Numbered from the stretch's first letter, positions 48,158-64,000 are shown. The stretch is DNA of 64,000 nt from Patescibacteria group bacterium (GCA_035528155.1 DATKZA010000121.1:26554-90553); one strand, 5' to 3'. Translations and numbers: made by a program. The notes: generated by a model from the letters alone, not told the origin.

Positions 48158-48210
48158 TTATTACCTGCGGCCGATGAACATGATACATCGATACGAACGA
48201 TATTGCCAAC

Positions 48211-48242: not shown

Positions 48243-48292
48243 CGGGAAAACGTTCACGGACCGCGCGCGGCGCGCGGCCCGCTTGAAAATGT

Positions 48293-51200
48293 CTAGAAAG
48301 CGAACTTGATGCCCAGCGTGGCTTCCAGGGGGGGCAGGAAGCGGTAGCCCATGCCGAAGCGCGGGTCGAGCTGCTCCACTCTGGACTTGACGTCGACGCC
48401 ATCCAGGAGGTCCTGGTCGCTGATAAAGACGTCATCTCTGTTGTAAAAGCTGAGCAGGCGCTGCGCCGTCTTGGCGTCGGTCACGTTGCGGACGTTGAGT
48501 GAGAATTCCAGGTTGTTCTTGCCCAGTTTCAGCGCGTACTCGGCGTAGAAGTCGGCGGTGACGGTGAAGGGGGAGCGCAGGCCGGTGTCGAAGCGGTTGT
48601 AGGGGTAGTAGCCCTGCTGGCCGTTCACCTGGATCTCGGTCGACAGCGGCTGGCCGGAGTAGGCATTCACCACGCCGCCCAGGGTCACGCCAAAGGGGAA
48701 AACGTAGGAGGCATAGGCCTTGAGGTAGTGGGGGCGGTCGGTGTTCATCTTGCCGGCGATCGGCTTCATGTACTGGTCGTAGGAAGTCATCCACAGGTCG
48801 AAGTAGCGGTTGACGTTGGGATCGTTGCGCTCAGCCTCGTCGGAGCTGTTCAGGCCGGCGTAGTTGCCGGTCAGCTGGCTCCAGGTGTAGGAGAGGCCGC
48901 CGAGCCAGTTGTCGCTGAAGCGCTTTTCCAGGGAGAGGTTGACGGCATAGTAGTCGCGGGTGGCCTTCTGCGGAGCAGGGATCCCGGCGGGCAGAATGCC
49001 GTTCGAAATGGCGATATCGTACTGGTTCTTCACGTAGTCGCTGCCGGGATTGGCGATGAAATAGGTCTCGCCCTCGGGCATCAGGATGCCGATGTCATCG
49101 ATCGCCCACAGCAGCTTCTTGTTGACCAGGCGCACAGAAAGGGACAGGTCGTCGTTGATCTTCTTTTCCAGGCCGAAGGAAATTTCGCGCTGGGACATGG
49201 GCTTCATGTCGGGGTCGGTCTCGTTGATCGAGGGGATGCGCCAGTTCTTGTTGCCCAGGTACAGGCCGGGGAAATTGCCGTTGACGCCGATCTGGTCCCA
49301 GTTGGGGGTATCCAGCTCATAATATTCGCTGATCCAGACAAAGCCGCCGTAGGAGCCTTCGGGCAGGGCGAGCTTCATGCAGTCCTGGAAAATGCCGAAG
49401 GCGCCGAACACCTTCAGGCTGGAGTCGCCGAAGACGTCGTAGATGAAGCCCAGGCGGGGGGCCAGCTTGTCGCCCCAGCCGAAGTCCAGGGGAACGATGT
49501 CCTTGAATTCAGGCAGGGAGCTGAACGCCGGCACCTGTTCCTTTTCGGCGCGCAGCCCGAAGTTGAGGGTCAGCTTGTTGGCGATGGTCCAGGAATCCTG
49601 GAGGTAGAATGCCCAGCGGTTGGACCTGGCCTTGTCGATCATCTGGCCGAAGGGGGTGCGGTTCTCATAGTAGCCGTACTTGCCGAGCCAGCCGGCATCC
49701 ACCGGGCTGCCCGGGATCTGGTTGGGGAAGGCACGGCCGACATAGAGCCTGATAACCGGGACCGGGGAAGTGCCGTTGTAGTCGTCCATGATCTGGTTGT
49801 AGGCAAAGCCGGCCTTCCAGGAGTGCTCGCCGGCCAGGTTCATGAAGTAGTTGACGTCGATGTTGGCGCTGGTGCGCGTGTAGTTGGCCTTCGACAACTT
49901 GTAGAAAAGGCCCCAGGTGTAATTGGACCAGCCGTAATTGCGGACCTTGTCCTCCGGCCAGCCGTAGGCGGCTTCACCGCCCGCATTGTACGTGAAATGC
50001 TGATAGTAGATCCCCGGGGGGTCCATGACCGAGGCGTCGTTCTGGTTGTAGTAGCCGAAGCGGCCGGACACCTGCAGATTGTTGCCGATGGTATAATCCA
50101 GGTTGGCGGAGGTGGACCAGGTCGGGGAGTTCTCGCCCATCTGGTCATAGGTGAAGGTGGAGCTTCCGATCGTCTGCCAGTCGGGGAAGTTGGTATTGGG
50201 GTCATCGCCCGGCAGGCCGCCGCGCCATTGGTTGTTGTTGGCGATGAAGGAGGCCGACAGGCGCATATTCTTGATCGGCTCGGCCGACAGCTTGATCGAG
50301 CCGTTCATCCATGTGTCCTTGCGCTCGTACGAGGTCAGCGGGGCGCCGGCCACTTCGTCGAAGTTGACGTCGCGGTTGGTCTGGCGATACACAGGCAGGA
50401 AGGAGCCGAAGAACCACAGCTTGTCCTTGAGGATGTAGCCGCCCAGGCTGAGGCCGCCCTCCAGGCGTGAGAAATCCTGATTGCTGAAGTTTTCGTAATT
50501 GAAATACTGGGCTACGGTCGGATCGTCCGGCTTCAGGCGCAGCACGTCGCGCATCTTGCCGCGCAGGGCGCTGCCCTGGAAGTAGCCCATGACCTCGCCG
50601 TGGAACTGGTTGCCGCCCGAGCGCGTGACCACGTTGACCACGCCACCCATGGAGCCGCCGAACTCGGCCTGGTAGCCCGAGGCCTTGACCTGCACTTCGT
50701 CGATGAAGTCGAAGGCGGCCTGCATGCGCTGCTGGGCGCCGCGCACTTCGCCGGTCTCCATGCCGTCGACGTAGAAGACGTTCTCGGCGCCGCTGGCGCC
50801 GTCGACCGACAGGCCGCCGGTCATGGGCTCGTTGTAGACGCCGGGGACGGCCGTGACCAGGGTGCTGAAGTCGCGCCCCTTGGGCAGGTTGTTGAAGAGC
50901 TCCTTGGTCAGGGTCATGCCCTTGGCCGTGCTCTTGACGTCGATCAGCGGCATCTCCCCGGTGATGGTGATGACCTCGTTCAGGTTGCCGAGCTTCATCT
51001 CGATCTTCAGGCTGGCGGTCTGCTCGGCGACCAGCGGGATGTTTTCCCGCACCACGGTCTGGAACCCCTCCAGGGTGAACACCAGCTTGTAGGTGCCGGG
51101 CGTTAAATTCAGAAGCCTGAAGGTGCCGTTCTCGTCGGTGACCGCCGTCGCGTTGCCGACCAGCTTGGGGCTGGTGGCTTCGATGCTGACGCCGGGCACC

Positions 51201-51322
51201 AATGAACCGTCTTCAAGTTGTACCGTGCCGAAGATCTTGGCAGTGGTCTGCTGGGCGCTCAGCATTCCCGCGAGCAGGAGCACGCTGAATGCCAGCAGGG
51301 TGAACCTTTTGACAATACTCAT
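48293..51322 (-). CDS. TonB-dependent-like outer-membrane receptor with an N-terminal carboxypeptidase-regulatory-like domain (1009 aa; real start MSIVKRF at 51322)
   Basis: Signal peptide; TAKIFGTVQLEDGSLVPGVSIEATSPKLVGNATAVTDENGTFRL CarboxypepD_reg fold; plug-like region; 22-strand-scale barrel; C-terminal LGIKFAF; AAGGAGGA RBS. Confidence 0.8.
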   Translation of the reverse strand: MSIVKRFTLLAFSVLLLAGMLSAQQTTAKIFGTVQLEDGSLVPGVSIEATSPKLVGNATAVTDENGTFRLLNLTPGTYKLVFTLEGFQTVVRENIPLVAEQTASLKIEMKLGNLNEVITITGEMPLIDVKSTAKGMTLTKELFNNLPKGRDFSTLVTAVPGVYNEPMTGGLSVDGASGAENVFYVDGMETGEVRGAQQRMQAAFDFIDEVQVKASGYQAEFGGSMGGVVNVVTRSGGNQFHGEVMGYFQGSALRGKMRDVLRLKPDDPTVAQYFNYENFSNQDFSRLEGGLSLGGYILKDKLWFFGSFLPVYRQTNRDVNFDEVAGAPLTSYERKDTWMNGSIKLSAEPIKNMRLSASFIANNNQWRGGLPGDDPNTNFPDWQTIGSSTFTYDQMGENSPTWSTSANLDYTIGNNLQVSGRFGYYNQNDASVMDPPGIYYQHFTYNAGGEAAYGWPEDKVRNYGWSNYTWGLFYKLSKANYTRTSANIDVNYFMNLAGEHSWKAGFAYNQIMDDYNGTSPVPVIRLYVGRAFPNQIPGSPVDAGWLGKYGYYENRTPFGQMIDKARSNRWAFYLQDSWTIANKLTLNFGLRAEKEQVPAFSSLPEFKDIVPLDFGWGDKLAPRLGFIYDVFGDSSLKVFGAFGIFQDCMKLALPEGSYGGFVWISEYYELDTPNWDQIGVNGNFPGLYLGNKNWRIPSINETDPDMKPMSQREISFGLEKKINDDLSLSVRLVNKKLLWAIDDIGILMPEGETYFIANPGSDYVKNQYDIAISNGILPAGIPAPQKATRDYYAVNLSLEKRFSDNWLGGLSYTWSQLTGNYAGLNSSDEAERNDPNVNRYFDLWMTSYDQYMKPIAGKMNTDRPHYLKAYASYVFPFGVTLGGVVNAYSGQPLSTEIQVNGQQGYYPYNRFDTGLRSPFTVTADFYAEYALKLGKNNLEFSLNVRNVTDAKTAQRLLSFYNRDDVFISDQDLLDGVDVKSRVEQLDPRFGMGYRFLPPLEATLGIKFAF

Positions 51323-51366
51323 TTTGTTTGTCCTCCTTTTTTTATTTGACAAAACATCCAAGGTGT

Positions 51367-51382
51367 TGCAAGTTCCATGCCA
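51367..51382 (-). promoter_or_regulatory. Sigma-54 (-24/-12) promoter TGGCAT-GGAAC-TTGCA upstream of receptor gene 1
   Basis: Coding strand CTTGGCATGGAACTTGCAACACC; GG-N10-GC spacing exact; about 45 nt upstream of the ATG. Confidence 0.55.
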
Positions 51383-51689
51383 AGGGAAGCGGATGGTTTG
51401 AAAACAGCCTGGGGAATTTTTAGTGAACCTGAAAAACTTGAATGGAAGAGGGTTTGCCAGCCAGGACAGGTCGCGGAGAACATTCACCGCAAAGAGTCTT
51501 TTCTTTTTTATTGCCCCTAAAAAATACAAATTATTAATTTTTATTTCAAAAAACAATTAAAAACTCAATTTATTGAACTGCGGATAAGGACTGGCCGGAA
51601 AAATATTGCGCTGATTGAAAAAAAAACTCCTCAAAAAGCATTGGCCGGGCCTGGTTCAAGAAAAAGCGGGTTTGCCTTTTGCTGCTTTC

Positions 51690-51718
51690 TTGTCAAGCGG
51701 AACGGGTAGTGTTATAAT
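51690..51718 (+). promoter_or_regulatory. Sigma-70-like promoter TTGTCA-17 nt-TATAAT upstream of GWxTD gene 1
   Basis: TTGTCA 51690-51695, TATAAT 51713-51718; the ATG at 51725 lies 6 nt downstream (possible leaderless start). Confidence 0.4.
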
Positions 51719-51724
51719 AAATTA

Positions 51725-53815
51725 ATGATGATCAATTCAGTAAGTGCAGTGAGGCCGATGATGAAAAAATTGCTTGTGGTTTGCAGCGTTCTGATTTTTT
51801 GCTTTTCACTTCATGGCGAATCCGAGAAAGAACTCATAAAAAAACTTCCACCGCCACACCGCGTCTGGCTCACGGAAGAGGTGGTATACATTATTTCCTC
51901 TGTTGAAAAGGAAGTTTTCTTGCAGCTTGAATCCGACCGGGAACGCGACACCTTCATCAGCGCCTTCTGGAAACAGCGCAATCCCACTCCCAACCTGCCG
52001 GAAAACGAATTTAAAAAAGAGCATTACCGCCGCCTGGCCTATGTCAACAACTGGTTCGGCAAGGATTCCCCGGCCCCGGGCTGGCGCACCGACCAGGGCC
52101 GTATCTACATCACCCTGGGTGAAGCGCATTCGATCGAACGTTACGAAAGCGACAACGACCTGGTTCCTACCGTGGTCTGGTTCTACCAGGGCATGGCCGC
52201 CAAGGGACTTCCCGATTCCTTCAACGTGGTTTTTTTCAAGAAGGACGGCATGGGAGAATATGAGCTCTATTCTCCCGTCAAGTACGGTCCCCAAGCCTTG
52301 ATGCGAAACTTCGAGGGCGATGCCACTTCTTATGAGGCGGCCTATTATGCCCTGCTGGATATACAGCCCCAGCTGGCTACCGTCTCTCTCTCACTGATCA
52401 CCGGTGAACCGCTGGGCGTGAATCCCTCCATAGCCTCGGAGCTGCTGATCCGGCAGAAGATCCCTGAAACCCCGCAGCGGAATATCAAGAATATTTACGC
52501 CAGCAATTTCCTCAAGTTCAAAGGGCAGGTCGAGATCGACTACGCCGACAATTTCATGGAGAGCAGTTCCCAACTCAATGTTGTCCGCCACCCATCCGGG
52601 CACTATTTCATCCATTACCTCATCGAACCCAAGCGCCTCTCCTTTGAACAATACAAGGAGAAGTATTACACCACCCTGGAAATTTCCGGCAATATCTCCG
52701 ACCCTTCCGGAAAGATGCTCACCCAGATCTCACGCCGCATTCCCCTTGAATTGAGTGAAAATCAGATGCGCATGGTCAAGGACAAGCTTTTCAGTTTTCA
52801 GGACATGATCCCGGTCATCCCTGGAAGTTATCGCCTCACCATTTTCCTTAAAAACCTTACCACCAAGGAATTCACATCCCTGGAAAAGGATTTTGTCATC
52901 CCCGACCGGGAAAAATTGGCGATCTCGACGCTGCTGCTGGCCAACCGCAAGGCCGCCGCCGCGAGCAGTGTTGTCATCAAACCTTTTATTTTCGACGGCA
53001 GCCACCTTCTACCTTCGCCGCGCAACGATTTTCTCGCGGCCGACAATCTGGAACTCTTTTTTCAACTCCACGGCCTGAGCGGGGACTTGATACGGGCCGG
53101 CTCCCTGGAAATATCCCTTTTCCGCCGCGGCGAAAAAGTTTTCACCAAGGAACGGCTGCTCCGCGATCTTGGCTCTCTGCCCGACGTGCTGGAAACCCTG
53201 CCACTGAAGGGTCAATCCCCTGCTTACTACAATCTCAAGGTGTCCCTGCTTGACCAGAAAAAAAGCGAGATCGCGACCAAAAACGCCGATTTCTACATAA
53301 CGCCGCAACCCTCCCTGCCCCGACCCTGGGTCGTTTCCGTGCCCACAGCTGTCGGCGATTTCAGCGTCTTTCTTAACGAACTTGGACGCCAGTACGTTCA
53401 GAGCGGTGATCTTGATAAGGCCCGGCCCCTTCTGGAATCGGCTTTCCGGCAAAACCCCGACAGCGTCCGCTTCGGCGGCGATTATTGCCAACTGCTGCTG
53501 CAGAAAAAGGAATTCGCCAAGGTCAAGGCCCTGGCCCTGCCCCAGGTCAAGGAAAAATCCCGTTTTGAATTCGCCCTGCCCCTGGGCCATGCCTGCCAGG
53601 GCTTGAACGAATTCAACGACGCCATCGCTTTCTACGCGGACTTCATCACCCATTTCGGGGCCAACATCAATGTCTTCAACCAGATCGGCGAGTGTTATTT
53701 TCAGCTGGGCAATGCGGCGGAAGCCCTGAAGGCCTGGGAAAAATCATTGGAACTCAATCCCAAGCAGCCGCTCATCAGGGAAAAAGTCGCTGGTTTGCAG
53801 AAAACCGCCAAATGA
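51725..53815 (+). CDS. GWxTD-domain protein with C-terminal TPR-like repeats (alternative start MMKKLL at 51758)
   Basis: Signal peptide; FWKQRNPTP...EFKKEHYRRLAYVNNWF...GWRTDQGRIYITLGEA matches the GWxTD domain signature. Confidence 0.75.
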   Translation: MMINSVSAVRPMMKKLLVVCSVLIFCFSLHGESEKELIKKLPPPHRVWLTEEVVYIISSVEKEVFLQLESDRERDTFISAFWKQRNPTPNLPENEFKKEHYRRLAYVNNWFGKDSPAPGWRTDQGRIYITLGEAHSIERYESDNDLVPTVVWFYQGMAAKGLPDSFNVVFFKKDGMGEYELYSPVKYGPQALMRNFEGDATSYEAAYYALLDIQPQLATVSLSLITGEPLGVNPSIASELLIRQKIPETPQRNIKNIYASNFLKFKGQVEIDYADNFMESSSQLNVVRHPSGHYFIHYLIEPKRLSFEQYKEKYYTTLEISGNISDPSGKMLTQISRRIPLELSENQMRMVKDKLFSFQDMIPVIPGSYRLTIFLKNLTTKEFTSLEKDFVIPDREKLAISTLLLANRKAAAASSVVIKPFIFDGSHLLPSPRNDFLAADNLELFFQLHGLSGDLIRAGSLEISLFRRGEKVFTKERLLRDLGSLPDVLETLPLKGQSPAYYNLKVSLLDQKKSEIATKNADFYITPQPSLPRPWVVSVPTAVGDFSVFLNELGRQYVQSGDLDKARPLLESAFRQNPDSVRFGGDYCQLLLQKKEFAKVKALALPQVKEKSRFEFALPLGHACQGLNEFNDAIAFYADFITHFGANINVFNQIGECYFQLGNAAEALKAWEKSLELNPKQPLIREKVAGLQKTAK

Positions 53816-53867
53816 GACCGTCTAATATAATGCCGGAGACCGGCAATTCAATATGGAGGTTAGCAAG

Positions 53868-54827
53868 ATGAATAGAGATTACAAAAAGCCTTGGTGCGTC
53901 CTGGCCTGTGTCCTGGTCGTTTCTTCACTCACTTTTGCCCAGGCCGGCCGCGGCAAGGGGCGCCTGAGCGGCAACGTGGTCGACGAGAAGGGCGAACCCA
54001 TCGTTACTGCGGAAGTGAAGATCGAGTTCGAGAAAGGCGGCCTGGTGGACAAGACCACGGTCAACAAGAAGGGCGAATGGAGCTTCATCAGTCTGGGAAC
54101 GGGCCAGGCCATCGTCACCGCTTCGGCGGAAGAATTCCTGGACAGCAGCCTGAACATTCACGTGCAGCAGCTGGAACGCAACAAGTTCGTCACCCTGGTC
54201 CTGAAGGAGGACAAGGAAAAAAAGATCCGCCTCAAAGATGCGGGCGCGCTGGAGGAATTGGAAAAAGGCAACCAACTTTTCCAGGAACGCAAGTTCGACG
54301 AAGCCTTGCAGATCTATCAAACCTTCGCTAGCGAAAACCCCAAGGTTTACCAGATCTATTTCAATATCGGTGATGTCTACCGCGAGAAAGGTGAATTCGA
54401 CAAAGCCAACGAGCAGTACGCCATGGCCCAGGTCAAGGCCAAGGAAAAGGCTGATGTCGTCCTGCAGGCCAGGGCCCTGGCCTCGTTCGGCGAGATCTGC
54501 CTGAGGCAGGAAAAATTCAAGGAAGCCCAGGAATTCTTCACCCAGTCGATCGCTCTCAACCCCAAGGACGAGATCCTGGCCTACAATGTGGCCGAGATAT
54601 TTTTCGGACGCAACCAGACCGACAAAGCCATCGAGTATTACCTGCTGGCCATTCAGATAAAACCCGAGTGGAGCGAGCCCTACCTGAAATTGGGCTATGC
54701 CTATCTGAACAAAGGCGACATGGCCAAGGCGGTCGAATATTTGAACGGCTTCCTCACCCACGACCCCGAATCGCCCCAGGCGCCGGTGGTCCAAAGCCTG
54801 ATCGAATCCCTGACCAAGGCCAAATAA
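53868..54827 (+). CDS. Secreted TPR-repeat protein with an N-terminal carboxypeptidase-regulatory-like domain (alternative start 53853)
   Basis: Signal peptide; GRLSGNVVDEKGEPIVTAEVKIEFEKGG CarboxypepD_reg-like; then at least 5 TPR units; GGAGG RBS before 53868. Confidence 0.7.
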   Translation: MNRDYKKPWCVLACVLVVSSLTFAQAGRGKGRLSGNVVDEKGEPIVTAEVKIEFEKGGLVDKTTVNKKGEWSFISLGTGQAIVTASAEEFLDSSLNIHVQQLERNKFVTLVLKEDKEKKIRLKDAGALEELEKGNQLFQERKFDEALQIYQTFASENPKVYQIYFNIGDVYREKGEFDKANEQYAMAQVKAKEKADVVLQARALASFGEICLRQEKFKEAQEFFTQSIALNPKDEILAYNVAEIFFGRNQTDKAIEYYLLAIQIKPEWSEPYLKLGYAYLNKGDMAKAVEYLNGFLTHDPESPQAPVVQSLIESLTKAK

Positions 54828-54829
54828 CC

Positions 54830-55500
54830 AGTAGGGGTTTGATGAATCAAACCCCTACCTATTCACCCATCCCCTCTCTTTCAAAATGAGAGGGGAGTGC
54901 TGTTTTCCCCTTCTCTTCCCAAGAGAAGGGGGTAGGGGATGAGTTGGGAGCATTCAGAAAATTTGTTTGTTTTAGATATCTCTCAGAGATTGAGTTAGGA
55001 AGGAAAAACTCACCCCCATCCCCTCTCTTTTAAAATGAGAGGGGTTTTTTTTTCTCTCCCGGGTTCGGCATGGAGGGAGAACGGCTATTAATACTGATAT
55101 TATATATATGGAAACCCCTTTCGGAGCGAATTGAGTATTCTGGTGGTTTATCCAGGGACGTATACGGAATACTGAACTCACCCCCTGACCCCCTCTCTTC
55201 CCAAAGAGAGGGGGAAGTGCAATTATGGCTGATGAAGCCCTTTCTCTTTACCAATCACTAATCACCAATCACGAATAACGAATCACGAATTGCGGGGGGA
55301 TGAGTTAAGAGCACGATTATCCTGACATTAGAACAAGCCAGCACAAGTTGGATCATTCGTAACGCGTAACACGTAACGCGTGACGAGAAAGAGAAGATGT
55401 CGAGGTTTGAGGTTCGAAGTAGAAGAAAAGATCACAAGGAAATTCCAGATGTAGGGGTTTGATTCATCAAACCCTTGCAGTCAGGTAATATTCTTCTGAG
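54830..55500. repeat. Non-coding island packed with short palindromic repeat units and hairpins (REP/MITE-like family shared with 672-775 and 18946-19185)
   Basis: Units cccctctctttcaaaatgagagggg, ccccttctcttcccaagagaagggggtaggggatgagtt, cccctctcttttaaaatgagagggg, ccccctctcttcccaaagagaggggg; CAATCAC tandem repeats at 55245-55295; palindrome GTAGGGGTTTGATGAATCAAACCCCTAC at 54833 with an imperfect copy at 55446. Confidence 0.55.
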
Positions 55501-55740
55501 TCTGGATTGATATCTGCCTGGGGCAGGGAACGCAGATCGATCTGCGTTCCTTCAGAAGAAAACCTATCATGCTTTTGTTTAGAATATTAGAACTTGGAAT
55601 TTATTTGGAATTTTCTTAAGTACGGGAGGGTTTCACCCCCTGAAGGGGGCACGAACCCTCCCCTACATTCCTCTCCCCCCATACCCCTCTACCTCTCGAA
55701 CTATTCCCTCGTCCCTTACTGCCGGGGGGCGATCTACGGG

Positions 55741-55786
55741 CAAAAAAAAACCCCGCCCCCCGAAGGGGGCAGGGTCTTTTAAGTCC
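55741..55786 (-). terminator. Strong rho-independent terminator downstream of receptor gene 2 (bidirectional hairpin; U9 on minus, UCUUUU on plus)
   Basis: caaaaaaaaaccccgccccccgaagggggcagggtctttt; 25 nt past the gene 2 stop at 55812. Confidence 0.65.
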
Positions 55787-55811
55787 GCTAATTTAAACGA
55801 TTAGCCGACGT

Positions 55812-58800
55812 TTAGAAACTGAACTTGAAGCCCAGGCGGACAGCCAGCGGAGTTCCGCGGACGCCGTCGCCGTAGAACCACGTTTCCTTCTTGAACAGGG
55901 GATCCAGCTCGATGTCGGCGATCTCCCAGGTGGAGCTGTTGGCGATCTCTTCGTAGCTGGGGGCGGTGCCGCCGTTGTTGTAGATCTGGTAGATCCTCTG
56001 CGCGGTGCGGCTGTTGGTGACGTTGTCGACGTTGACGCTGATGTTGAGGTTGTTCTTGCCCAGTTTGAGGTTGTATTCGGCGTAGAGATTGGCGAACCAG
56101 AAGAAGGGGGTGCGGCCCAGGTCGCCGCGTCCGAAGGGCAGGTAGCCCTGGACGTCCATGGAGTACTCGGTCGAGACCGGGATGCCGCTCATGGCGTTGA
56201 TGACCGTACCGAAGGTCAGGCCCATGGGCAGGGAGTAGGAGCCGTACAGTTTGACGTAGTGGGTGCGGTCGCCGGGCATGACGCCGTCGATCTTGTTCAT
56301 CTCCCTGTCAAACGCCAGGTACCAGAGGTCGAAGTAGCGTTCGACGTTGGGGTTGCTGCGGCCCAATTCGTCGCCCGAGGCCAGGCCGGAGTAGTTGCCG
56401 GTCAGGCGGCTCCAGGTGTAGGAGATGCCGCCCATCCAGTTGTTGGAGAAACGCTTGTCGAGGGAGAGGTTGAGGGCGTAATACAGGCGCTTGGCTTTGG
56501 GGATGTCCGGGGCGTTCTGGGGGATCGATCCGGTCGCTTTTTGTTCAGCCCATCTCGCCTTGATGTAGTCGCTGCCGGGGTTGGTGGTGTAGTACATTTC
56601 GCCGTCGGGGGTCAAGATGCCGATGTCCTCGATGGCCCAGAGCAGGTTCTTGTTGACCAGGCGGGCGGTAAAGGCCAGGTCTTCCCTGAGTTTCTTTTCG
56701 ACACCGAGGGAGATTTCCATCTGGCTCATGGATTTCATGTCGGGGTCGGTGGTATCGAAGGAGGGCATGCGGAAGTCGAAGACGGCCAGAGGAGTGCCGT
56801 AGTCCCAGCCTTCCATGCCGATCTCGTCCCATTTGTAGGTGTTGAGCGGGTAGATGGCGCTCGACCATAAGAATCCACCGTAGGAGCCGGCGGCCATTTC
56901 GAGCTTCATGACGTCATAAAAGAGGCCGGCCGAACCGAAGACTTTGAGACTGGAGTCGCCATTGACGTCCCAGATGAAGCCTAAGCGCGGAGCCAGCTTG
57001 TCGCCAAAGCCCCACTCGATGGCCTTGACGTCTTTGTAGTCGGGGTTCGAGCTGTAGGAGGGGATGTATTCGGCTTCGGTGCGCACGCCAAAGTTGATGG
57101 TGACGCGGTTGGCGATGGTCCAGGAATCCTGGAGGTAGAGGGCCCAGCGGTTGGAATACGCTTTGTAATAAGCCCCGTATGGACCGGAATCTACGTTGCC
57201 GCGCGCGGAGTAGTAGCCGTAGGTACCGCGGCCATAGTTTGTACCGTATGCTTCATAATCCCTGTTCCAGCCAAACAAAATATAGGGAAAGGCCGCGGAG
57301 TTGTCATAATTCTGCCCCTGGCGCACGAACTGCACGCCGGCCTTCCAGGAGTGTTCGCCGCCCAGGTTGAGGAAGTAGGTCATGTCGGCGTTGACGCTCA
57401 TTTTTTCGTTCAGGGCCTTTTTGAGCGCATAGGGTACGGCCGATGCGCTTCTAAAACCAGCACTACGCTGGTACTCATCGGGCACGCCCGGCAATCCTCT
57501 GTTGGTGGTGCTGAAATAACCGCCGGGGGCTTCCGTCAAGAATCGCCAGTACGGTTCGGTCGGATCAACAAGAATACCACCTTGGTCGCGCTTGAAGTAG
57601 CCGGCGCGGGCGCTGACCATGAAGTTGTTGCCCGCGGTGAAGTCGGCCGAAAAGCTGCCGGAGAAGTTAGGATAGGAGTAACCATACTCGTCGTAGGAGA
57701 CCTTCGGGGCAGGGTTGCCGCCGAAGGCGTTGTTCAGATCGCCCTTGTAATTGTAGAAACTGTTGACCAAGGAAGCGGTCACGCGCAGGTTCTTGGCGGG
57801 CTGGGCGGTGAGCTTGCCTGAGAAGTTCCAATAGTTTTCGGTCCGTTTCCAGTCTTTGACCGTGCCGCCGCCGTAGTCGACTGTGCGGGTGTTGCTGTAG
57901 TAGACGGGCAGGAAGGAGCCGAAGAACCACAGCTTGTCCTTGATGAGGTAGCCGCCCAGGTTGAAGCCGCCTTCGAGGCGGCTGTCATTGTTGTCGCCGA
58001 TATAATCGACGTAATCGTAATACTTGGCTTTGCTGACGTCCACCTTGTCGTAGTCGAGGCGTTGACTGTAGGGCGCGCGCAGGGCGGCGCCGCTGTAGAA
58101 ACCCAGGATCTCGCCATGAAATTCGTTGCCGCCCGAGCGGGTGACGACGTTGATGACGCCGCCCAGCGAGCCGCCGAATTCGGCACTGTAACCGGAAGCC
58201 TTGACCTGGACCTCGTCGACGAAGTCGAAGGAGGCCGACTGGCCGTTGGCGCCGTTAACGATGTTGGTGACGTCGGTGCCGTCGATGTAGTACATGTTCT
58301 CCAGGCCCGAGGCGCCGTCGATCGAGGTGCCGCCGAGCATGGGCTCGTTGGAAACGCCGGGGATGGCGGTGATCAGCGAGTCGAAGTTGCGGCCCTTGGG
58401 CAGGGTCTGGAAGACCTCTTTGGTCAACGTCATGCCCTTGACCGTGCTCTTGACGTCGATCTGGGCGACCTGACCGGTGATGGTCACCATTTCCTCGATG
58501 TTGCCGAGTTTCATGGAAACCTTGATGCTGAGGGTCTGTTCCAAGCCTACCTGGACGCCGTCCCGAATGACGGTCTGGAATCCCTGCAGGGTAAACACCA
58601 GTTTGTACATACCCGGAGCCAGGTTAAAAAGCCTGAAGGTGCCGTTTTCGTCGCTGACCGCGGTGGTCTTGCCGACTAATTTCGGGCTGGTGGCCTCGAC
58701 GTTAACGCCGGGGACCAGCGAGCCGTCTTCAAGCTGCACTACGCCAAAGATCTTGGCCGTAGATGTCTGGGCTGTCAGCAGTCCTGCGCACAGGAGCAGG

Positions 58801-58838
58801 CTGATCGCCAGCACAGCGAACCTTTTGGCAAAATTCAT
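55812..58838 (-). CDS. TonB-dependent-like outer-membrane receptor with an N-terminal carboxypeptidase-regulatory-like domain; paralog of 48293-51322
   Basis: MNFAKRFAVLAISLLLCAGLLTAQTSTAKIFGVVQLEDGSLVPGVNVEATSPKLVGKTTAVSDENGTFRL is collinear with receptor 1 along the full length; ends GFKFSF. Confidence 0.8.
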   Translation of the reverse strand: MNFAKRFAVLAISLLLCAGLLTAQTSTAKIFGVVQLEDGSLVPGVNVEATSPKLVGKTTAVSDENGTFRLFNLAPGMYKLVFTLQGFQTVIRDGVQVGLEQTLSIKVSMKLGNIEEMVTITGQVAQIDVKSTVKGMTLTKEVFQTLPKGRNFDSLITAIPGVSNEPMLGGTSIDGASGLENMYYIDGTDVTNIVNGANGQSASFDFVDEVQVKASGYSAEFGGSLGGVINVVTRSGGNEFHGEILGFYSGAALRAPYSQRLDYDKVDVSKAKYYDYVDYIGDNNDSRLEGGFNLGGYLIKDKLWFFGSFLPVYYSNTRTVDYGGGTVKDWKRTENYWNFSGKLTAQPAKNLRVTASLVNSFYNYKGDLNNAFGGNPAPKVSYDEYGYSYPNFSGSFSADFTAGNNFMVSARAGYFKRDQGGILVDPTEPYWRFLTEAPGGYFSTTNRGLPGVPDEYQRSAGFRSASAVPYALKKALNEKMSVNADMTYFLNLGGEHSWKAGVQFVRQGQNYDNSAAFPYILFGWNRDYEAYGTNYGRGTYGYYSARGNVDSGPYGAYYKAYSNRWALYLQDSWTIANRVTINFGVRTEAEYIPSYSSNPDYKDVKAIEWGFGDKLAPRLGFIWDVNGDSSLKVFGSAGLFYDVMKLEMAAGSYGGFLWSSAIYPLNTYKWDEIGMEGWDYGTPLAVFDFRMPSFDTTDPDMKSMSQMEISLGVEKKLREDLAFTARLVNKNLLWAIEDIGILTPDGEMYYTTNPGSDYIKARWAEQKATGSIPQNAPDIPKAKRLYYALNLSLDKRFSNNWMGGISYTWSRLTGNYSGLASGDELGRSNPNVERYFDLWYLAFDREMNKIDGVMPGDRTHYVKLYGSYSLPMGLTFGTVINAMSGIPVSTEYSMDVQGYLPFGRGDLGRTPFFWFANLYAEYNLKLGKNNLNISVNVDNVTNSRTAQRIYQIYNNGGTAPSYEEIANSSTWEIADIELDPLFKKETWFYGDGVRGTPLAVRLGFKFSF

Positions 58839-58885
58839 TTGTTTGTCCTCCTTTTTAGATTTTTAGACAAATCACTAATAATATA

Positions 58886-58900
58886 GCAAGAACCATGCCA
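58886..58900 (-). promoter_or_regulatory. Sigma-54 (-24/-12) promoter TGGCAT-GGTTC-TTGCT upstream of receptor gene 2
   Basis: Coding strand CTTGGCATGGTTCTTGCTATAT; same spacing to the ATG as at gene 1; identical 22-nt AAAAAGGAGGACAAACAAAATG RBS region. Confidence 0.55.
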
Positions 58901-59187
58901 AGTTGACAAAGGGGGCGGCTATTGTCAATCGGAACGGAAACAATTTATAGAAGTGCGCTTATCAATGGTTTCGCCCGGGGGAGGAATGAAACCGTATCGC
59001 TGATAGCGAGAGTAGTTTCTCTGAAACCCGGAAAAATTCAAATAATTGAATAATTATTCAAAAAACAGAATTATGGTTGTTGGAAAACTGGGGGATTCCA
59101 CTTTTGGGTCATTGAAAAGCGGCTGGGTGAGTAGCAAAAAAGTGCCGACCGCCGCTTGGGGACGATCGGCACGATAAAAAACTGATT

Positions 59188-60225
59188 CTATAATACGATC
59201 TTGAAGGTGAATTCCTGCAAACCCTTGGTTTTGGAAACATTGTCCAGGATTTCGATCTCCAGGACATAAGCGCCGGGCTCGAGCAGCTTCTCTTTGCGTT
59301 CCGTTTCGACGCCTTTGTCGTTCTTGGTCACCTCGGTGTAGGCAAAGGCGATAGGCTGGCTGATGATGGGGCTGTTGACGGTCTGCGGGGCCATTTTGTT
59401 GACCTCCTTGCCGTCTTTCTTGAATTTGTAGGTGACCTGCAGATTCAGTGCCTTGGTAGCGCTGTCGGGTTTGCCGCCGAGGATAAAATAAAAAAGGTCC
59501 AGGTTCTCGTTGGTTTTGAATTCGTTTTTCAGGTCTGGCGCCAGCAGCAGGGTGTTGTAAACAAAGGAATTTTTATGGATGATCAATTTCGTTTCGGCAG
59601 CCTGCATCATTTGCAGGTCGCGCACCGAAAAAACCGGGGTAGTGACGAGCTTGTCATTGATGCTGGCGAAATCAGGGATGGAAAATTCAGTATAGCAGGC
59701 AGCGATCTTGGTGAAATCCGACGTGCTGACAGCCAGGGCCAGCAGATAGGCGCCGGCCGGGTAAATATCGCCGGCGATGGAGTAATAGTTCAGGGCATCG
59801 GGCTGGAACCCCTGCTGGTTTTCCTCCAGGTCGAAGCGAATGTTGCGTTCCTTGACGATCTCCCCGGGCACGCCGTTCTCCATGCGGTAGACGCGGATGA
59901 AAGCCATGTGATTGGCTTTGAGCACTCCGGGAGCTTCCGCTTGCGATGAAAAATCCAGGTCGGAGTTCTTCATCTGGAACAAGAAGACCGGGTAGGCATG
60001 GTTCTGCTGGGCGGGCAGGTACAAGGTCTTCAGGTAGGTCATGGGGATGTCGCTGCGGTTCAGCCGGGTTGAGACGCCGGCTGCAAACACGGCGGCAACC
60101 TCGGGGGAGATGAAGAACTGGCCCTGGTTCTTTTCAGTGGCGGGTTTGCTTTTTGCGGCCGCCAATTGCAGCGAGATCAACAGCAGTACGGTCAGCGTCG
60201 TAACAATAGAGTTCCTTGCTTTCAT
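59188..60225 (-). CDS. Hypothetical secreted protein (345 aa)
   Basis: Signal peptide MKARNSIVTTLTVLLLISLQLAAA; no recognisable domain; 17 nt downstream of GWxTD gene 2 (operon). Confidence 0.45.
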   Translation of the reverse strand: MKARNSIVTTLTVLLLISLQLAAAKSKPATEKNQGQFFISPEVAAVFAAGVSTRLNRSDIPMTYLKTLYLPAQQNHAYPVFLFQMKNSDLDFSSQAEAPGVLKANHMAFIRVYRMENGVPGEIVKERNIRFDLEENQQGFQPDALNYYSIAGDIYPAGAYLLALAVSTSDFTKIAACYTEFSIPDFASINDKLVTTPVFSVRDLQMMQAAETKLIIHKNSFVYNTLLLAPDLKNEFKTNENLDLFYFILGGKPDSATKALNLQVTYKFKKDGKEVNKMAPQTVNSPIISQPIAFAYTEVTKNDKGVETERKEKLLEPGAYVLEIEILDNVSKTKGLQEFTFKIVL

Positions 60226-60242
60226 TATATTTCTCCTATAAA

Positions 60243-61241
60243 TTACATCTTGATCTTGAGCTCTTTCTGGACCTGGCTTCCGTCGGCGGTATTTACCAGT
60301 GTTGTTTTGGCGGTGTACTGGCCGGGAGGGAGCTTGAGGGCGAATTCGATGATGAAAGTCTTGCCCAGCTGTTCCAACTTGTTCCTGTCAACGGAAACGG
60401 GATGCAGTTCTTCTTTTTCCAGGACTGTTTCGCCCGCTGCGTTGGCAACGAGCACCTTCAGTTTGATGCGGGTCTCCAGGGCTCCACTCTGCTCGTTCTG
60501 TACCAGGTTGGTTACGCGGTAGGGGACCTCAAACAGCAGCTTGGCCTGGCCGGGGGCGTCGGCTTGCAGGGTCAAAACGAAATCGAATTGGCGGATGTTG
60601 CGGGTGATGCCCGGCGGCTTGAGTCGCATCTGGGTGATGTTGATCATGCTCATTCTGCGGGCACTGCTTGGTTCAAGCTTGTATAAGCCTTCGCGCTCAT
60701 AATCGACGAAGATGATCGGGAAAAATCCGTAATACCATATCTCGACCGGCGGGTCGTAGAAACTGTAGCCGCTGGGGAAGACGTCGCGCCGCTCCGGCTC
60801 GCCCAGCAGGATGTAAATGCGGCCGCGGTCGCTCAGCCAGCCCGAATCGCCGCCGCGAAAAAGGTGGTTGGCGAAGTCGATGCGCCGGTAGTATTCTGTG
60901 CGGAATTCGTTTTCCGGTGTGGTGGGGTCGGGGTCCCTCTGCTTCCAGAATTCTTCGATGAACTGTTTCCTTTCATCGGTCTGGGTTCTCATGAAGATCT
61001 TTTTTTCCTTTTTGCTGATCAAATAGCGGACTTCTGAAAGGAATTGCCTGTCTTGGGGAGGCAGGGTGCGCACTGCCCGGCTGCTGCCGGAACAGGAAGC
61101 CAGCAGTTGGATAAGCAAAAAGATTCCCAAGCCGGGCCTGAGCGCCTTCCGTGCCCTTCCCTTCTGCGGCTGCGGCTGGAAATGGACAGGGGACAATCCG
61201 CCAGTAAATCCCAGCCATGAAAAAACATTTTCTTTTTTCAT
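60243..61241 (-). CDS. GWxTD-domain lipoprotein
   Basis: FWKQRDPDPTTPENEFRTEYYRRIDFANHLF...GWLSDRGRIYILLGEP matches the GWxTD signature; LLASC lipobox after an unusually long N-region. Confidence 0.7.
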   Translation of the reverse strand: MKKENVFSWLGFTGGLSPVHFQPQPQKGRARKALRPGLGIFLLIQLLASCSGSSRAVRTLPPQDRQFLSEVRYLISKKEKKIFMRTQTDERKQFIEEFWKQRDPDPTTPENEFRTEYYRRIDFANHLFRGGDSGWLSDRGRIYILLGEPERRDVFPSGYSFYDPPVEIWYYGFFPIIFVDYEREGLYKLEPSSARRMSMINITQMRLKPPGITRNIRQFDFVLTLQADAPGQAKLLFEVPYRVTNLVQNEQSGALETRIKLKVLVANAAGETVLEKEELHPVSVDRNKLEQLGKTFIIEFALKLPPGQYTAKTTLVNTADGSQVQKELKIKM

Positions 61242-61315
61242 TTGATTTTGCGATTGGATCGATTTTCAATTATATCATAATTTACATTTCTTCGCAAAGC
61301 GCTATAATGGCAATC

Positions 61316-63709
61316 ATGAAAAAGCATCTTTTGATCCTGTTTTTATTTGTAGCGGAAGCACTACTGGGTTCAACAGCGGAAAAACTGGAAACCGTGATCC
61401 AGAACAAGGACTGGCCGGCGCTGGCCGCTCGGTTTGGCGATGGCAGCCATCAACAGGCAGCCGTCTATTTTCAGGAATGCCAGAGGGTTGCCTTCAGTTC
61501 GCTGCGCCAGAACAACCTGATGTTTTTTGCCCGCTTTCGGGACTACGCCGAGATCGGCGAGATCACTTTCGCTTTCGAAAACGGCTTGTACCGGCAGTTG
61601 ACCCTGACGCGCAACATCAAGCCCCTGCATTTCATCCAGGCCTTTTCCCGTTATGACATATCCAACCGCACTCTGCGCATGGGCGACGCCGAGATCTTTT
61701 TTAAAAAGGGAGTCATCTACCAGGGGCTGCCCATGGACAACCTGTTCATTTTTTACGGGGAATGGACTTTCAGTGTCCGGCCTGAAGACAAAGAGGAGCG
61801 CTTGACCCTGCGCAGCCTGGAACGCAACGAGCAATTCAAAAAGGATGCCCAGGCCGGGGTATTCATTTCAAGCCGGCCCGAAATGGTCTCCGGCCTGCCC
61901 GATCCGCAAGCGGCGGGCGAACCGCAGGAGCAGGAAGCCAAGCTTCTTTATGAAATTTTTCAGAAAAAGTGGGGGATGCGCATCCCTTTTTTCGATGAAC
62001 TGTGGTATTTGCCTTTTGCCGCCGATTTCAACACCGCCATCTTCTTCCGCAAACCGGGAAAATCGTATTTCCGCTATATTTTCAATTCCGCTATTTCTCC
62101 CGACACCAGCCTGGTGCTATTACCGGAAAACAAGTTTTATTTGAATTACAATGCCGTACAAGGCCTTAAATTCACCACCCAGGCGGTCGATGAGCTGGAA
62201 AAACTTCAGTTGAACCTGTTCTACAACCCCAAGGTCCATTTTCTCTCCGGGACAGCCGTTCTGAATTTCAAGGAGCCTGCGAATATCAAGACGGTCAACC
62301 TTGCTCCCGGGCTGGTTGTCAAGGGCTACGGCAAGTCACAGCAGAATGAACTGCAGTTGTTCCAGCGCCAAGACACCTACTTCCTCCTGGGACCGGAACT
62401 GAATAAATTCGGTTTTTACTATGCCGGGAGCATCCAACCCAGCGATGATGACGAAGAACCGCCCCCTATCGGCATGAAGAACCGCGGGCGCGGCAACCGC
62501 GGTCGTGTTTACATTCTGAAACGCGACCAGGACTTCTATCCCAACCCGGGCCAGCATTTCTTCCCAAGCCGCGTCAAGGTTTCACTGCCGTTTCCCATGC
62601 ATTGCCTGGCCTCGGGGAGCCTGAGCTCGCAGCGGAAACTGGGAGACCACAACGAATTTGTATATGAAAGCCCAGGCACCAAGGGAGTCTCCCTGGTTTG
62701 TGGAGACTTCGAAAAATTGCTGACCGTCCCCAGTAAATTGCCAATCCAACTATACGGCCCGGCCAAGTTGAGGCTGAGGGATTTTTTCCCCGATAATGCG
62801 CTCCAGGGCTATTTTGATTTCCTGCTGGAAAAATTCGGCATGCTGGAGGTCCCTGAAGTGAACCTGTTGTTGCGCCGCTACCATGATTACGGCGGCTGGA
62901 GCAACCAGGGTTTTGTGATCTTCAATCTCCTTGATACCCGGGTCCTTGATGACGACCTGAGCGTTGTCCGGCGCATCCGCAGCGATAGTCCCGTGGTCTT
63001 CTCCGATGTCAACCGCGACAGCATGGTCCATGAATTGGCCCACCAGTGGTGGGGTGGCGTCATCTCCTGGAAATCCTATCAAGACATATGGTTGACCGAG
63101 GGGCTGGCCCAGTTCTCCACTCTGCTCTACCTGCAGGATTTCCTGGGTGAAAAACAGTTCCGCAGGGCGGTGGCCAGCACCAAAAGGTGGGTTTTTCGCA
63201 AAAATGACGCCGGACCGATCATCTACGGCCAGCGCATCGCCAATCTCAGTGAGGACCTGTATACCTACCAGAGCATCATCTACAACAAGGCGGCCCTGGT
63301 CTTTCTGATGCTCAGGGATATTCTGGGCGAGGATGAGCTGCTGGACCGCTTGCGCCAGGTCCTGGCCGATTTCAAGTACCAGAGTCTGAGCACAGCACGC
63401 TTCATTCGGCATATCAGCCAGGACAGCCAACGCCTGCGCAAGTTTTTCAAAGGCTGGATCTATACACGCCAGCTGCCGGAAGTCAGTTATCAGGTCAACT
63501 GTAGCGGAGCGAACGCCGAGATCACCTTCAGCCAAAAAAACAGCGATTTCGTTTTTCCGGTCAGCGTAAGCATTGCCACGGCCGACGGCAAGTACGTCCG
63601 CACCCTGATCGTCGAGGAAAAGGTCCAGAAATTCAAAATAGTTGAAAACACCCCCATCCAATCGATTGAAATCGATGCCGGGGTTGCACCTATTAAATTG
63701 CTGGATTAA
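61316..63709 (+). CDS. M1-family zinc metallopeptidase (aminopeptidase N-like); possibly leaderless (alternative start 61307)
   Basis: Signal peptide; HELAHQWWG then E at +19 (HEXXH-X18-E gluzincin motif); TTTACA-16-TATAAT promoter with the -10 ending 7 nt before the ATG at 61316. Confidence 0.8.
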   Translation: MKKHLLILFLFVAEALLGSTAEKLETVIQNKDWPALAARFGDGSHQQAAVYFQECQRVAFSSLRQNNLMFFARFRDYAEIGEITFAFENGLYRQLTLTRNIKPLHFIQAFSRYDISNRTLRMGDAEIFFKKGVIYQGLPMDNLFIFYGEWTFSVRPEDKEERLTLRSLERNEQFKKDAQAGVFISSRPEMVSGLPDPQAAGEPQEQEAKLLYEIFQKKWGMRIPFFDELWYLPFAADFNTAIFFRKPGKSYFRYIFNSAISPDTSLVLLPENKFYLNYNAVQGLKFTTQAVDELEKLQLNLFYNPKVHFLSGTAVLNFKEPANIKTVNLAPGLVVKGYGKSQQNELQLFQRQDTYFLLGPELNKFGFYYAGSIQPSDDDEEPPPIGMKNRGRGNRGRVYILKRDQDFYPNPGQHFFPSRVKVSLPFPMHCLASGSLSSQRKLGDHNEFVYESPGTKGVSLVCGDFEKLLTVPSKLPIQLYGPAKLRLRDFFPDNALQGYFDFLLEKFGMLEVPEVNLLLRRYHDYGGWSNQGFVIFNLLDTRVLDDDLSVVRRIRSDSPVVFSDVNRDSMVHELAHQWWGGVISWKSYQDIWLTEGLAQFSTLLYLQDFLGEKQFRRAVASTKRWVFRKNDAGPIIYGQRIANLSEDLYTYQSIIYNKAALVFLMLRDILGEDELLDRLRQVLADFKYQSLSTARFIRHISQDSQRLRKFFKGWIYTRQLPEVSYQVNCSGANAEITFSQKNSDFVFPVSVSIATADGKYVRTLIVEEKVQKFKIVENTPIQSIEIDAGVAPIKLLD

Positions 63710-64000
63710 TGAAAAAGAAGCGTCTGATTACGATTGTTTTGGCTGTTTTTTCATTCTTGGCTTTCATGGCGTGCGGCAGCCGAAAAACCGATCATTTCAA
63801 CCTGCTGGTCATAACCCTGGACACCACGCGAGCCGACGGCATCGGCGCCTATGGCAACCGGGATGCCGCCACCCCCCATATCGATCGCCTGGCTGAAAAA
63901 GGGATCATGTTCCGCAATTGCTATACACCGGTCCCCTTGACCCTGCCTGCCCATTGTTCGCTTTTCACCGGCCGCTATCCCCTGGCCCACCAGGTCAGGA
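63709..64000 (+). CDS. Sulfatase-like hydrolase/transferase (alkaline-phosphatase superfamily), 3'-partial; start overlaps the M1 peptidase stop (TAATG)
   Basis: Signal peptide/lipobox FMACGS; LVITLDTTRADGIGAYG metal-binding block; sulfatase-signature position reads T-L-P-A-H instead of C/S-x-P-x-R. Confidence 0.6.
   Translation, partial: MKKKRLITIVLAVFSFLAFMACGSRKTDHFNLLVITLDTTRADGIGAYGNRDAATPHIDRLAEKGIMFRNCYTPVPLTLPAHCSLFTGRYPLAHQVR

Follow-up and report, generated by a model that had tools for sequence, protein, structure and literature searches.

Positions 48293 to 64000 of the window (the entire 64,000-nucleotide stretch analysed, GCA_035528155.1 DATKZA010000121.1:26554-90553) encode two TonB-dependent receptors (R1 and R2), two proteins with the GWxTD domain (GWlong and GWshort), a protein that joins a CarboxypepD_reg domain to tetratricopeptide repeats (TPRs; CPD-TPR), a secreted 345-residue protein (UNK345), an M1-family peptidase and a sulfatase-like protein. 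We read this locus, with a probability of roughly 0.5, as a TonB-dependent transport module of Aminicenantes that works with a periplasmic GWxTD/TPR accessory complex. Its core would be an Oar-subclass TonB-dependent outer-membrane transporter with a CarboxypepD_reg extension, a TonB box, a plug and a large barrel, and its constant partners would be three exported, non-enzymatic proteins (GWxTD-sandwich-TPR, GWxTD lipoprotein and CarboxypepD_reg-TPR), normally encoded in one operon. The lineage of the window has split this operon and gained a second receptor paralog, a tandem beta-sandwich protein, an M1 metalloprotease, a phosphoesterase-TPR lipoprotein with a putative Thr nucleophile and a TonB of its own. 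In our model, the GWxTD and TPR proteins would form a periplasmic complex that engages the receptor's periplasmic CarboxypepD_reg extension and the free CPD-TPR protein, beside TonB, and that assembles, gates or couples TonB-driven transport. Most likely, the module would import peptide or phosphoester material derived from polymers, to be processed afterwards by the periplasmic hydrolases encoded with it.

Gene content and conservation of the cluster

An earlier sequence-only reading of this DNA had described eight genes with their order, domains and export signals, a 984-nt repeat spacer and a TAATG overlap, all of which we recovered at the positions it gave. Eight long open reading frames (ORFs) lie within 48293-64000, in the same order and orientation, and an export signal, either a signal peptide or a lipobox, was readable at all eight N-termini. 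Domains were called with Pfam and NCBIfam at curated cut-offs; every domain call exceeded its cut-off, save that UNK345 had no match. Gene calls on an identical public contig (L230) place the likely true starts of R1, GWlong and the peptidase at 51322, 51758 and 61307.

48293..51322 (ORF 48293-51556), minus strand: R1, TonB-dependent receptor paralog, 1009 aa, start MSIVKRF
51758..53815 (ORF from 51725), plus strand: GWlong, GWxTD-TPR protein, 685 aa from MMKKLL (ORF 696 aa)
53853..54827, plus strand: CPD-TPR, CarboxypepD_reg-TPR protein, 324 aa
55812..58838, minus strand: R2, conserved cluster receptor, 1008 aa
59188..60225, minus strand: UNK345, secreted tandem beta-sandwich protein, 345 aa
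60243..61241, minus strand: GWshort, GWxTD lipoprotein, 332 aa
61307..63709 (ORF from 61217), plus strand: M1-family zinc metallopeptidase, 800 aa from MAIMKKHLL (ORF 830 aa)
63709..64000, plus strand, cut by the window end: sulfatase-like TPR lipoprotein, 5' end, first 97 residues

The evidence that these genes belong together comes from related genomes. We scanned one genome per GTDB species, which left 80 loci, every one from Aminicenantes or a mislabelled relative, and then queried the ORFs of these loci with the window proteins. Synteny was counted at the 37 species loci where GWshort has 5 kb or more of DNA on its left and 8 kb or more on its right. At these loci GWshort was accompanied by GWlong in 34/37, by a receptor in 34/37 (31/37 when the receptor had to score at least 700 bits) and by CPD-TPR in 31/37. 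The sulfatase-like gene, called esterase-TPR hereafter, was nearby in 19/37, UNK345 in 13/37 and the M1 peptidase in 8/37. GWlong stood directly upstream of GWshort and co-directional with it in 27 of the 37. The receptor adjoining the operon in 31/37 loci belongs to the same orthologous group as R2 (800-1900 bits), at GWshort identities down to ~35%, and three relatives with GWshort identities of 63%, 53% and 44% retain the gene set. The sequence-only reading had proposed that the genes work together and had named conserved synteny in related genomes as the test of this; synteny proved strongly conserved, at 31 to 34 of the 37 loci.

The usual order was GWlong, GWshort, sometimes UNK345, and CPD-TPR, followed by the convergent receptor with or without esterase-TPR. 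CPD-TPR is normally the last gene of the GWlong-GWshort operon. In L002, for instance, the four small genes all read in one direction; at one junction they overlap by 4 nt, and the other two junctions measure 14 and 21 nt. The ancestral order is GWlong-GWshort-(UNK345)-CPD-TPR with one convergent receptor. The split, divergent layout with M1 and TonB is confined to the closest relatives of the window, and R1 is a lineage-specific paralog confined to this sublineage. The two GWxTD/receptor pairs of the window are a lineage-specific rearrangement, and the earlier suggestion that each GWxTD protein has a receptor paralog of its own does not hold, since ancestrally both sat in one operon with CPD-TPR and a single receptor. 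GWlong, GWshort, CPD-TPR and the R2-group receptor are the core partners. The peptidase and hydrolase genes that the same reading had included in the system are present, but as accessory genes; neither M1 nor the esterase, nor UNK345, belongs to the core.

CarboxypepD_reg receptors are numerous in Acidobacteriota in general, and chance juxtaposition of abundant envelope gene families could in principle produce such a neighborhood. The same orthologous receptor group would not, however, be expected next to the operon in 31/37 loci by chance, and we found no other receptor of the R1/R2 kind in the remaining ~48 kb of the 64-kb window. The synteny counts rule out chance co-location, to which we assign a negligible probability.

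A second, diverged type of cluster was found in L059 and L083, which come from the same metagenome-assembled genome (MAG), and also in L072-L074, L080 and L082. It consists of GWlong-GWshort-esterase-TPR, two distant receptors (~170 bits to R1/R2) and a further GWlong-like gene. Some genomes thus carry two diverged systems with different receptors.

Receptors with a CarboxypepD_reg extension

R1 consists of a signal peptide, an N-terminal CarboxypepD_reg extension, a TonB-box-like stretch (NEVITITGEMPLIDVKS), a predicted plug and a beta-barrel with the C-terminus ...KFAF. R2, which is 50.6% identical to R1, carries the TonB-box-like stretch EEMVTITGQVAQIDVKS and ends in ...KFSF. The hidden Markov model (HMM) searches that had been proposed for this locus gave receptor, PF13620 and GWxTD calls above cut-offs. 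For R1 and R2, respectively, PF25183 (OMP_b-brl_4) scored 117.6 and 108 bits (cut-off 30), PF13620, lying ahead of the plug, 59.9 and 51.6 bits (cut-off 32.3), and PF00593 38.1 and 29.0 bits (cut-off 27). The Pfam Plug model stayed below its cut-off of 23.9, at 20.6 and 19.9 bits. A profile of 14 receptor sequences matched the PDB structures of CirA, FepA, PfeA and PqqU over their plug regions (E 3e-7 to 1e-4); a single receptor sequence found no match among solved structures, so the plug matches come from the family profile only.

The TonB-box-like EE[IV]TV[IT]GQSPLIDVKS is conserved among orthologues, and a stretch E-[EV]-[IV]-T-[VI]-[TI]-G, a TonB box by sequence only, lies between extension and plug in all of them. 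A tonB gene ends the M1-phosphoesterase operon in the window organism and its six closest relatives. On the full-length contig this co-directional gene follows the sulfatase-like gene, outside the window; its 253-aa product is a TonB by its match to TIGR01352 (tonB_Cterm), and an unrelated hydrogenase cluster comes next. Because of the plug profile matches, the conserved TonB-box-like stretch and the tonB gene, we consider the receptors probably TonB-dependent. Published work defines the Oar subclass of TonB-dependent transporters by a CarboxypepD_reg extension (PMC6434023), and the predicted architecture of R1 and R2 is that of the Oar subclass by this definition.

The order of signal peptide, PF13620 extension, predicted TonB box and plug, and ~1000-aa barrel corresponds to that of Oar of Myxococcus xanthus, which is needed for PopC secretion, and a dedicated Ton component is likewise encoded nearby. 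The likeness is one of domain order, and unlike the window receptors Oar has no reported GWxTD or CPD-TPR partners (PMC6434023). This precedent raises the alternative that the receptor exports, moving a periplasmic protein outward with TonB energy as Oar does for PopC; the GWxTD proteins, UNK345 or the metallopeptidase would then be cargo, and the TPR proteins periplasmic cargo chaperones. Oar is required for protease secretion (PMC6434023) and the receptors share its architecture. TPR proteins commonly chaperone secretion substrates, and a secreted metalloprotease is co-encoded in the lineage of the window. Yet the experimental precedent is a single one, the putative cargo genes M1 and UNK345 are absent from most loci where GWxTD and TPR genes are retained, and the presence of GWxTD in M56 sensors (see below) favours a resident periplasmic module over cargo. 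We therefore regard export, including these assignments of cargo and chaperone, as quite unlikely.

GWxTD proteins, CPD-TPR and UNK345

GWlong and GWshort are clear members of the GWxTD family (TIGR04514/PF20094, a domain of unknown function), for which the databases record the domain alone. They scored 107.2 and 116.2 bits against TIGR04514 (cut-off 28) and 40.3 and 55.5 bits against PF20094 (cut-off 26.9), and the motif reads GWRTDQG and GWLSDRG in the two window proteins. In GWlong, a signal peptide is followed by the GWxTD domain (~aa 48-160 of the ORF), a beta-sandwich (~aa 337-527) and C-terminal TPRs (~aa 545-690). GWshort has the lipobox LLASC-S, whose Cys50 is conserved in at least 90% of 44 homologues. 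Its GWxTD domain (~aa 62-180) begins ~12 residues past the lipidated Cys, and an Ig/FN3-like sandwich forms the C-terminus (aa 220-332). The motif W135/D138/R139/G140/R141 is invariant in the 44-sequence alignment. An AF2 model of GWshort (pLDDT 71) presents the GWxTD domain, with moderate confidence, as four helices and a small sheet; the GWshort profile had no match among solved structures.

CPD-TPR carries a signal peptide, a CarboxypepD_reg domain at aa 38-106 (PF13620, 40 bits) and TPR repeats at aa 133-320, the latter matched by many TPR families. UNK345 had been described as lacking any recognisable domain, and as far as Pfam and NCBIfam are concerned this is so; hhalign, however, aligned its profile with the sandwich region of GWlong at 92% probability. 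UNK345 is a tandem beta-sandwich homologous to the central part of the GWxTD proteins, a copy of their sandwich module that lacks the GWxTD domain. The sandwiches of the GWxTD proteins and UNK345 are Ig/MG-like. GWlong, CPD-TPR and UNK345 each start with an ordinary signal peptide, and none of them is lipid-anchored.

These features invite comparison with the SusCD/RagAB 'pedal-bin' complexes of Bacteroidota, which combine a TonB-dependent transporter that has a CarboxypepD_reg-like extension with lipoprotein and TPR-like partners and degradative enzymes (PMC7782687; PMC11817032); RagAB imports peptides. Unlike them, the window locus has no gene for a lid of the SusD/RagB family among its Pfam and NCBIfam matches, and its partners are GWxTD and TPR proteins, mostly without a lipid anchor and probably periplasmic. 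The sequence-only reading had favoured a related arrangement in which GWxTD proteins at the surface capture a peptide or glycoconjugate and hand it to the receptors, in the manner of SusD/RagB lids, while the enzymes trim it outside. GWshort is indeed a lipoprotein, Ig/MG-like sandwiches are common in surface proteins, and hydrolases are co-encoded; moreover, SusC/RagA barrels are capped by TPR-like lids (PMC11817032). The absence of any SusD/RagB-like family from the Pfam and NCBIfam matches of the locus genes argues against such a role, as does the lack of a lipid anchor, and hence of a known surface route, in GWlong, CPD-TPR and UNK345. The hydrolases also fall outside the conserved core, and the GWxTD domain occupies a periplasmic position in the M56/TonB_C fusions described next. 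We accordingly do not favour surface capture, which we judge unlikely.

GWxTD domains in M56 sensor fusions

The GWxTD family counts 9275 representatives at 50% identity. Among the best 150 of these, 13 were BlaR1-type Peptidase_M56 membrane proteins. Past their final membrane helix, where BlaR1 has its extracellular sensor, they carry either a single GWxTD domain or a pair of them, and two of the 13 end in a TonB C-terminal domain. Such fusions made up 4 of ~120 random GWxTD ORFs. In all five M56-GWxTD contexts with upstream DNA, a BlaI-family repressor gene overlapped by 4 nt, and one context has two multi-CarboxypepD_reg genes directly upstream. The stand of GWxTD between the inner-membrane M56 sensor and TonB_C places the domain in the periplasm in those fusion proteins, within the same polypeptide as the TonB-box-binding domain. 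No M56-GWxTD fusion was found among the Aminicenantes loci, and neither the window nor any of the 85 Aminicenantes loci has a BlaR1/BlaI-type (M56/BlaI) pair.

Related modules occur on the TonB proteins of Bacteroides. Some Bacteroides TonB homologues have M56 domains and others CarboxypepD_reg-like domains, and the latter are suggested to help form the receptor-TonB-ExbBD complex (PMC10350073). In Bacteroides thetaiotaomicron these are TonB1/10 (M56) and TonB7/11 (CarboxypepD_reg-like), which parallel the M56-...-TonB_C arrangement and the presence of CarboxypepD_reg on Ton-side proteins. By analogy, this supports assigning M56 and CarboxypepD_reg modules to the periplasmic Ton/receptor interface. 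Unlike these TonBs, the window proteins are free-standing rather than TonB-fused, and GWxTD is not mentioned in the passages of PMC10350073 that were retrieved.

TonB-dependent transducers offer a second parallel. The STN domain of FecA/FoxA-type receptors binds a periplasmic anti-sigma domain (as summarised in PMC7782687), so an additional N-terminal periplasmic domain of the receptor is read by a dedicated periplasmic partner, as would hypothetically be the case here. GWxTD on BlaR1-type inner-membrane sensors paired with a repressor is formally parallel. The differences are that the receptor domain is CarboxypepD_reg and not STN, that GWxTD/M56/BlaI replaces FecR and an ECF sigma factor, and that the window has no regulator. 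One could suppose that the free-standing GWxTD proteins likewise take part in trans-envelope signalling and report the receptor state to a regulator, as the M56-GWxTD sensors presumably do. The BlaI repressor gene in each of the five M56-GWxTD contexts fits this view, and so do a PDZ histidine kinase and a sigma-54 regulator that follow a GWxTD/CarboxypepD_reg-barrel pair in L229. However, the free GWxTD proteins lack both a membrane-spanning and an output domain, and genes for M56, BlaI, an ECF sigma factor or an anti-sigma factor are absent from the window as well as from the Aminicenantes loci, which makes signalling by the cluster very unlikely.

GWxTD genes beyond the clade

To sample the family more widely we used a random motif-based contig scan (back-translated GW-x-TDRG-xx-Y-xxx-G), which returned 120 metagenomic GWxTD loci, nearly all of them true GWxTD. 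The commonest type, of ~580 aa, was directly followed by a co-directional gene of ~580 aa, here called CPDX, in at least 27 of the 45 cases with at least 500 nt of downstream DNA; on a 965-kb contig the pair is 7 nt apart. CPDX begins with a CarboxypepD_reg domain and ends in an outer-membrane beta-signal, ...RGGVSFQF. Because the CPDX partners are mutually only 19-64% identical, the GWxTD/CPDX pairing is old. Source labels for this ~580-aa GWxTD lineage are missing or contradict one another. The linkage of GWxTD to CarboxypepD_reg-fronted outer-membrane proteins, noted by the sequence-only reading for the window alone, hence extends to distant lineages. CPDX has no NCBIfam name and no plug detectable by hhalign; by the same method its barrel has no homology to that of the window receptors, and the N-terminal domains alone align.

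The L229 pair mentioned above (L229:11714-17936) comes from a soil-type lineage. The two genes that follow it co-directionally encode a PDZ-PAS histidine kinase and a sigma-54 response regulator, a neighborhood that may represent a regulatory link.

These wider contexts bear on a further possibility, that the cluster encodes a complex with a constitutive part in outer-membrane structure or biogenesis, whose task would be tethering, quality control or the assembly of receptors and not the transport of a particular substrate. The cluster occurs in nearly every sampled Aminicenantes species locus, many GWxTD genes elsewhere lie among mreB, purN and lipid A acyltransferase genes, hhalign detects no plug in the barrel that accompanies the commonest GWxTD type, and CPD-TPR resembles part of PorE, at the domain level only. 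Nonetheless, the partner conserved within this clade is a complete TonB-dependent transporter with predicted plug and TonB box, and the two diverged clusters with different receptors in some genomes (L059, L083) are as in substrate-specific systems. We consider a purely structural role rather unlikely.

A proposed periplasmic accessory complex

We return to the transport module with a periplasmic accessory complex. It is suggested by a recurrent arrangement in which GWxTD stands on one side and a protein beginning with CarboxypepD_reg, be it a TPR protein, an Oar-type transporter or a plug-less barrel, stands on the other. The periplasm is where the free-standing GWxTD proteins would meet both the receptor extension and CPD-TPR. 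Import is the most economical reading of the accessory hydrolases.

Several observations weigh against this interpretation. The hydrolases occur in a minority or about half of the loci, which weakens the assignment of a substrate, and the one Oar-subclass transporter that has been characterised is required in export rather than import (PMC6434023). The tonB linkage is restricted to the sublineage of the window. Two fold searches listed no match for the GWxTD domain, only the sandwich being matched, and the model is of moderate confidence. BLASTP found no match between the CarboxypepD_reg domain of CPD-TPR and the receptor extension, which are not close copies. Lastly, other GWxTD types (~450 aa) stand among the housekeeping genes purN, mreB, lipid A acyltransferase and pyk; since many GWxTD genes stand alone in such surroundings, receptor linkage is not universal.

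A broader generalization would make GWxTD a dedicated periplasmic binding partner of the CarboxypepD_reg extension of Oar/SusC-type receptors and related barrels. We put it forward as a doubtful, though concrete, proposal. If it held, free-standing GWxTD proteins with TPR scaffolds would assemble or gate the receptor-TonB complex, and a trans-envelope signalling route, new and parallel to the STN/anti-sigma pathway, would run from the receptor extension through GWxTD and the M56 protease to the BlaI repressor. Both the GWxTD family and the essential N-terminal receptor extension would thereby gain a function. This extension is found on ~28% of catalogued TonB-dependent transporters (PMC6434023) and is essential yet unexplained in a SusC-type transporter (PMC7782687). 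GWxTD and CarboxypepD_reg are joined in three ways, through the operon-plus-receptor cluster, the independent GWxTD/CPDX pair and the BlaR1/TonB_C fusions. Two "unknowns" would so become one hypothesis open to binding assays, with possible new receptor-coupled regulation, and its interest lies in making the receptor extension experimentally approachable.

A full-text literature search for GWxTD, PF20094, TIGR04514 and IPR030959 found no paper, and one that combined Aminicenantes with TonB-dependent and peptidase brought up nothing of relevance. The component families and the kind of transporter are known; in the papers searched we did not find the GWxTD/CPD-TPR accessory operon, the general pairing of GWxTD with CarboxypepD_reg-first proteins or the M56-GWxTD(-TonB_C) sensors.

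Accessory enzymes

Both accessory enzymes carry substitutions that correct two tempting annotations in these genomes, "aminopeptidase" and "sulfatase". In the M1 protein, PF01433 (85 bits) covers only aa 533-747, the catalytic domain. The HELAH-x18-E zinc site (HELAHQWWGGVISWKSYQDIWLTEG) and the tyrosine of YNKAA are kept, align with ERAP2 and are conserved in 10 orthologues. GxMEN is the exopeptidase motif, and its Glu binds the free amino terminus of the substrate. The GAMEN region of ERAP2 corresponds to GGWSN/GWSNQ here, and the equivalent reads GG[WLMV]S[NHQY] in 10/10 orthologues, none of which has Glu. Scores against equivalog models were at most 60 bits, with cut-offs of at least 591. 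The earlier assignment to M1 therefore stands for the zinc site and tyrosine, but with the GAMEN Glu replaced the peptidase should not be called an aminopeptidase. It is better described as a putative endopeptidase-like metalloprotease.

The sulfatase-like protein has the lipobox FMAC-G and, in the full contig, 816 aa with a long TPR tail. Its 97-aa fragment in the window scored 50.3 bits with PF00884 and 37.2 bits with PF01663, and it belongs to the alkaline-phosphatase superfamily (Sulfatase/Phosphodiest fold). A full orthologue matched solved S1 sulfatases and a phosphonate monoester hydrolase; against arylsulfatase and choline-sulfatase models the protein stayed far below cut-offs. C/S-x-P-x-R is the type I sulfatase signature that is converted to formylglycine. 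At its position we found T-[LTC]-P-[SA]-H (PLT[LTC]P[SA]H) in the window and in 27 orthologues, the region having been retrieved in 27 of 31. The superfamily fold was thus correctly recognised before, but the sulfatase signature is missing: with T-x-P-x-H in place of C/S-x-P-x-R formylglycine cannot form, and a formylglycine-dependent sulfatase was rejected since Thr and His stand where Cys and Arg are needed. Because of this replacement the protein is more probably phosphodiesterase-like. We take it to resemble the Thr-nucleophile phosphodiesterases, its T-x-P-x-H-x-S-I-x-TG presumably corresponding to the NPP motif TFPNHYSIVTG.

GWxTD and an MA-clan metallopeptidase were found together a second time, independently, at L192:1522-9866, where a 487-aa GWxTD gene adjoins a gene for a 1048-aa protein with Peptidase_MA_2 and a PD40 beta-propeller, near a TPR-GWxTD protein.

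Transcription units, spacer and surroundings

The remaining features of the locus are as follows.

48218..48243, minus strand: terminator-like hairpin 3' of R1, 11-bp stem with 10 GC pairs, T-run
54828..55811, no strand: convergent intergenic spacer, repeat-rich, 984 nt
59142..59172, minus strand: terminator-like hairpin after the GWshort-UNK345 unit, 12-bp stem then TTTTTT

The hairpin at 48218..48243 marks the left end of the locus. The start of CPD-TPR lies 37 nt downstream of GWlong, and the M1 stop and the ATG of the sulfatase-like gene overlap as TAATG. A promoter-like site for GWlong at 51690-51718 matches at 11/12 positions, and R2 has a promoter-like site of its own at 58909-58880, both by consensus match only. 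These promoter-like and terminator-like sites, as consensus matches, suggest five transcription units: R1; GWlong-CPD-TPR; R2; GWshort-UNK345; and M1-esterase-TonB. A sub-threshold Rfam match to the Burkholderia sRNA ncS54 at 48212-48263 on the minus strand (28.6 bits, gathering score 43) is almost certainly chance similarity to the R1 terminator hairpin.

The spacer contains many palindromic and direct repeats from several short-palindrome families, together with terminator-like hairpins for both flanking units. Copies of GTAGGGGTTTGAT..ATCAAACCCCTAC at 54831 and 55451 bracket ~620 nt, four hairpins have the form CCCCTCTCTT..AGAGAGGGG, and AATCACG and CGTAACG occur as tandem 7-mers. The repeats have no further copy elsewhere in the window, and Rfam gave no match to the spacer. 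Since the corresponding spacers in L001 and L004 measure only 400-500 nt, part of the spacer may be a small inserted element.

Directly to the left, 46058-48157 and 43466-45972, both on the minus strand, encode an ArnT-like (PMT_2) glycosyltransferase that has TPRs, and ResB/CcsA for cytochrome c biogenesis; further left are a hybrid-cluster protein and NifU/NifS-like genes. None of these has an evident tie to the locus. GC content steps from 60-67% over 44000-51000, which includes R1, to 48-58% over 51000-64000; a relative with only 63% identity has its genes in the same order, which speaks against an assembly chimera.

GWshort has the same sequence as the public protein HUU06145.1, whose label reads "Patescibacteria group bacterium". 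Because every relative comes from Aminicenantes MAGs, this label is probably a binning error. Many loci of the genome scan carry the label 'uncultured Eubacteriales/Clostridia', probably a mis-assigned MAG taxonomy of the same kind.

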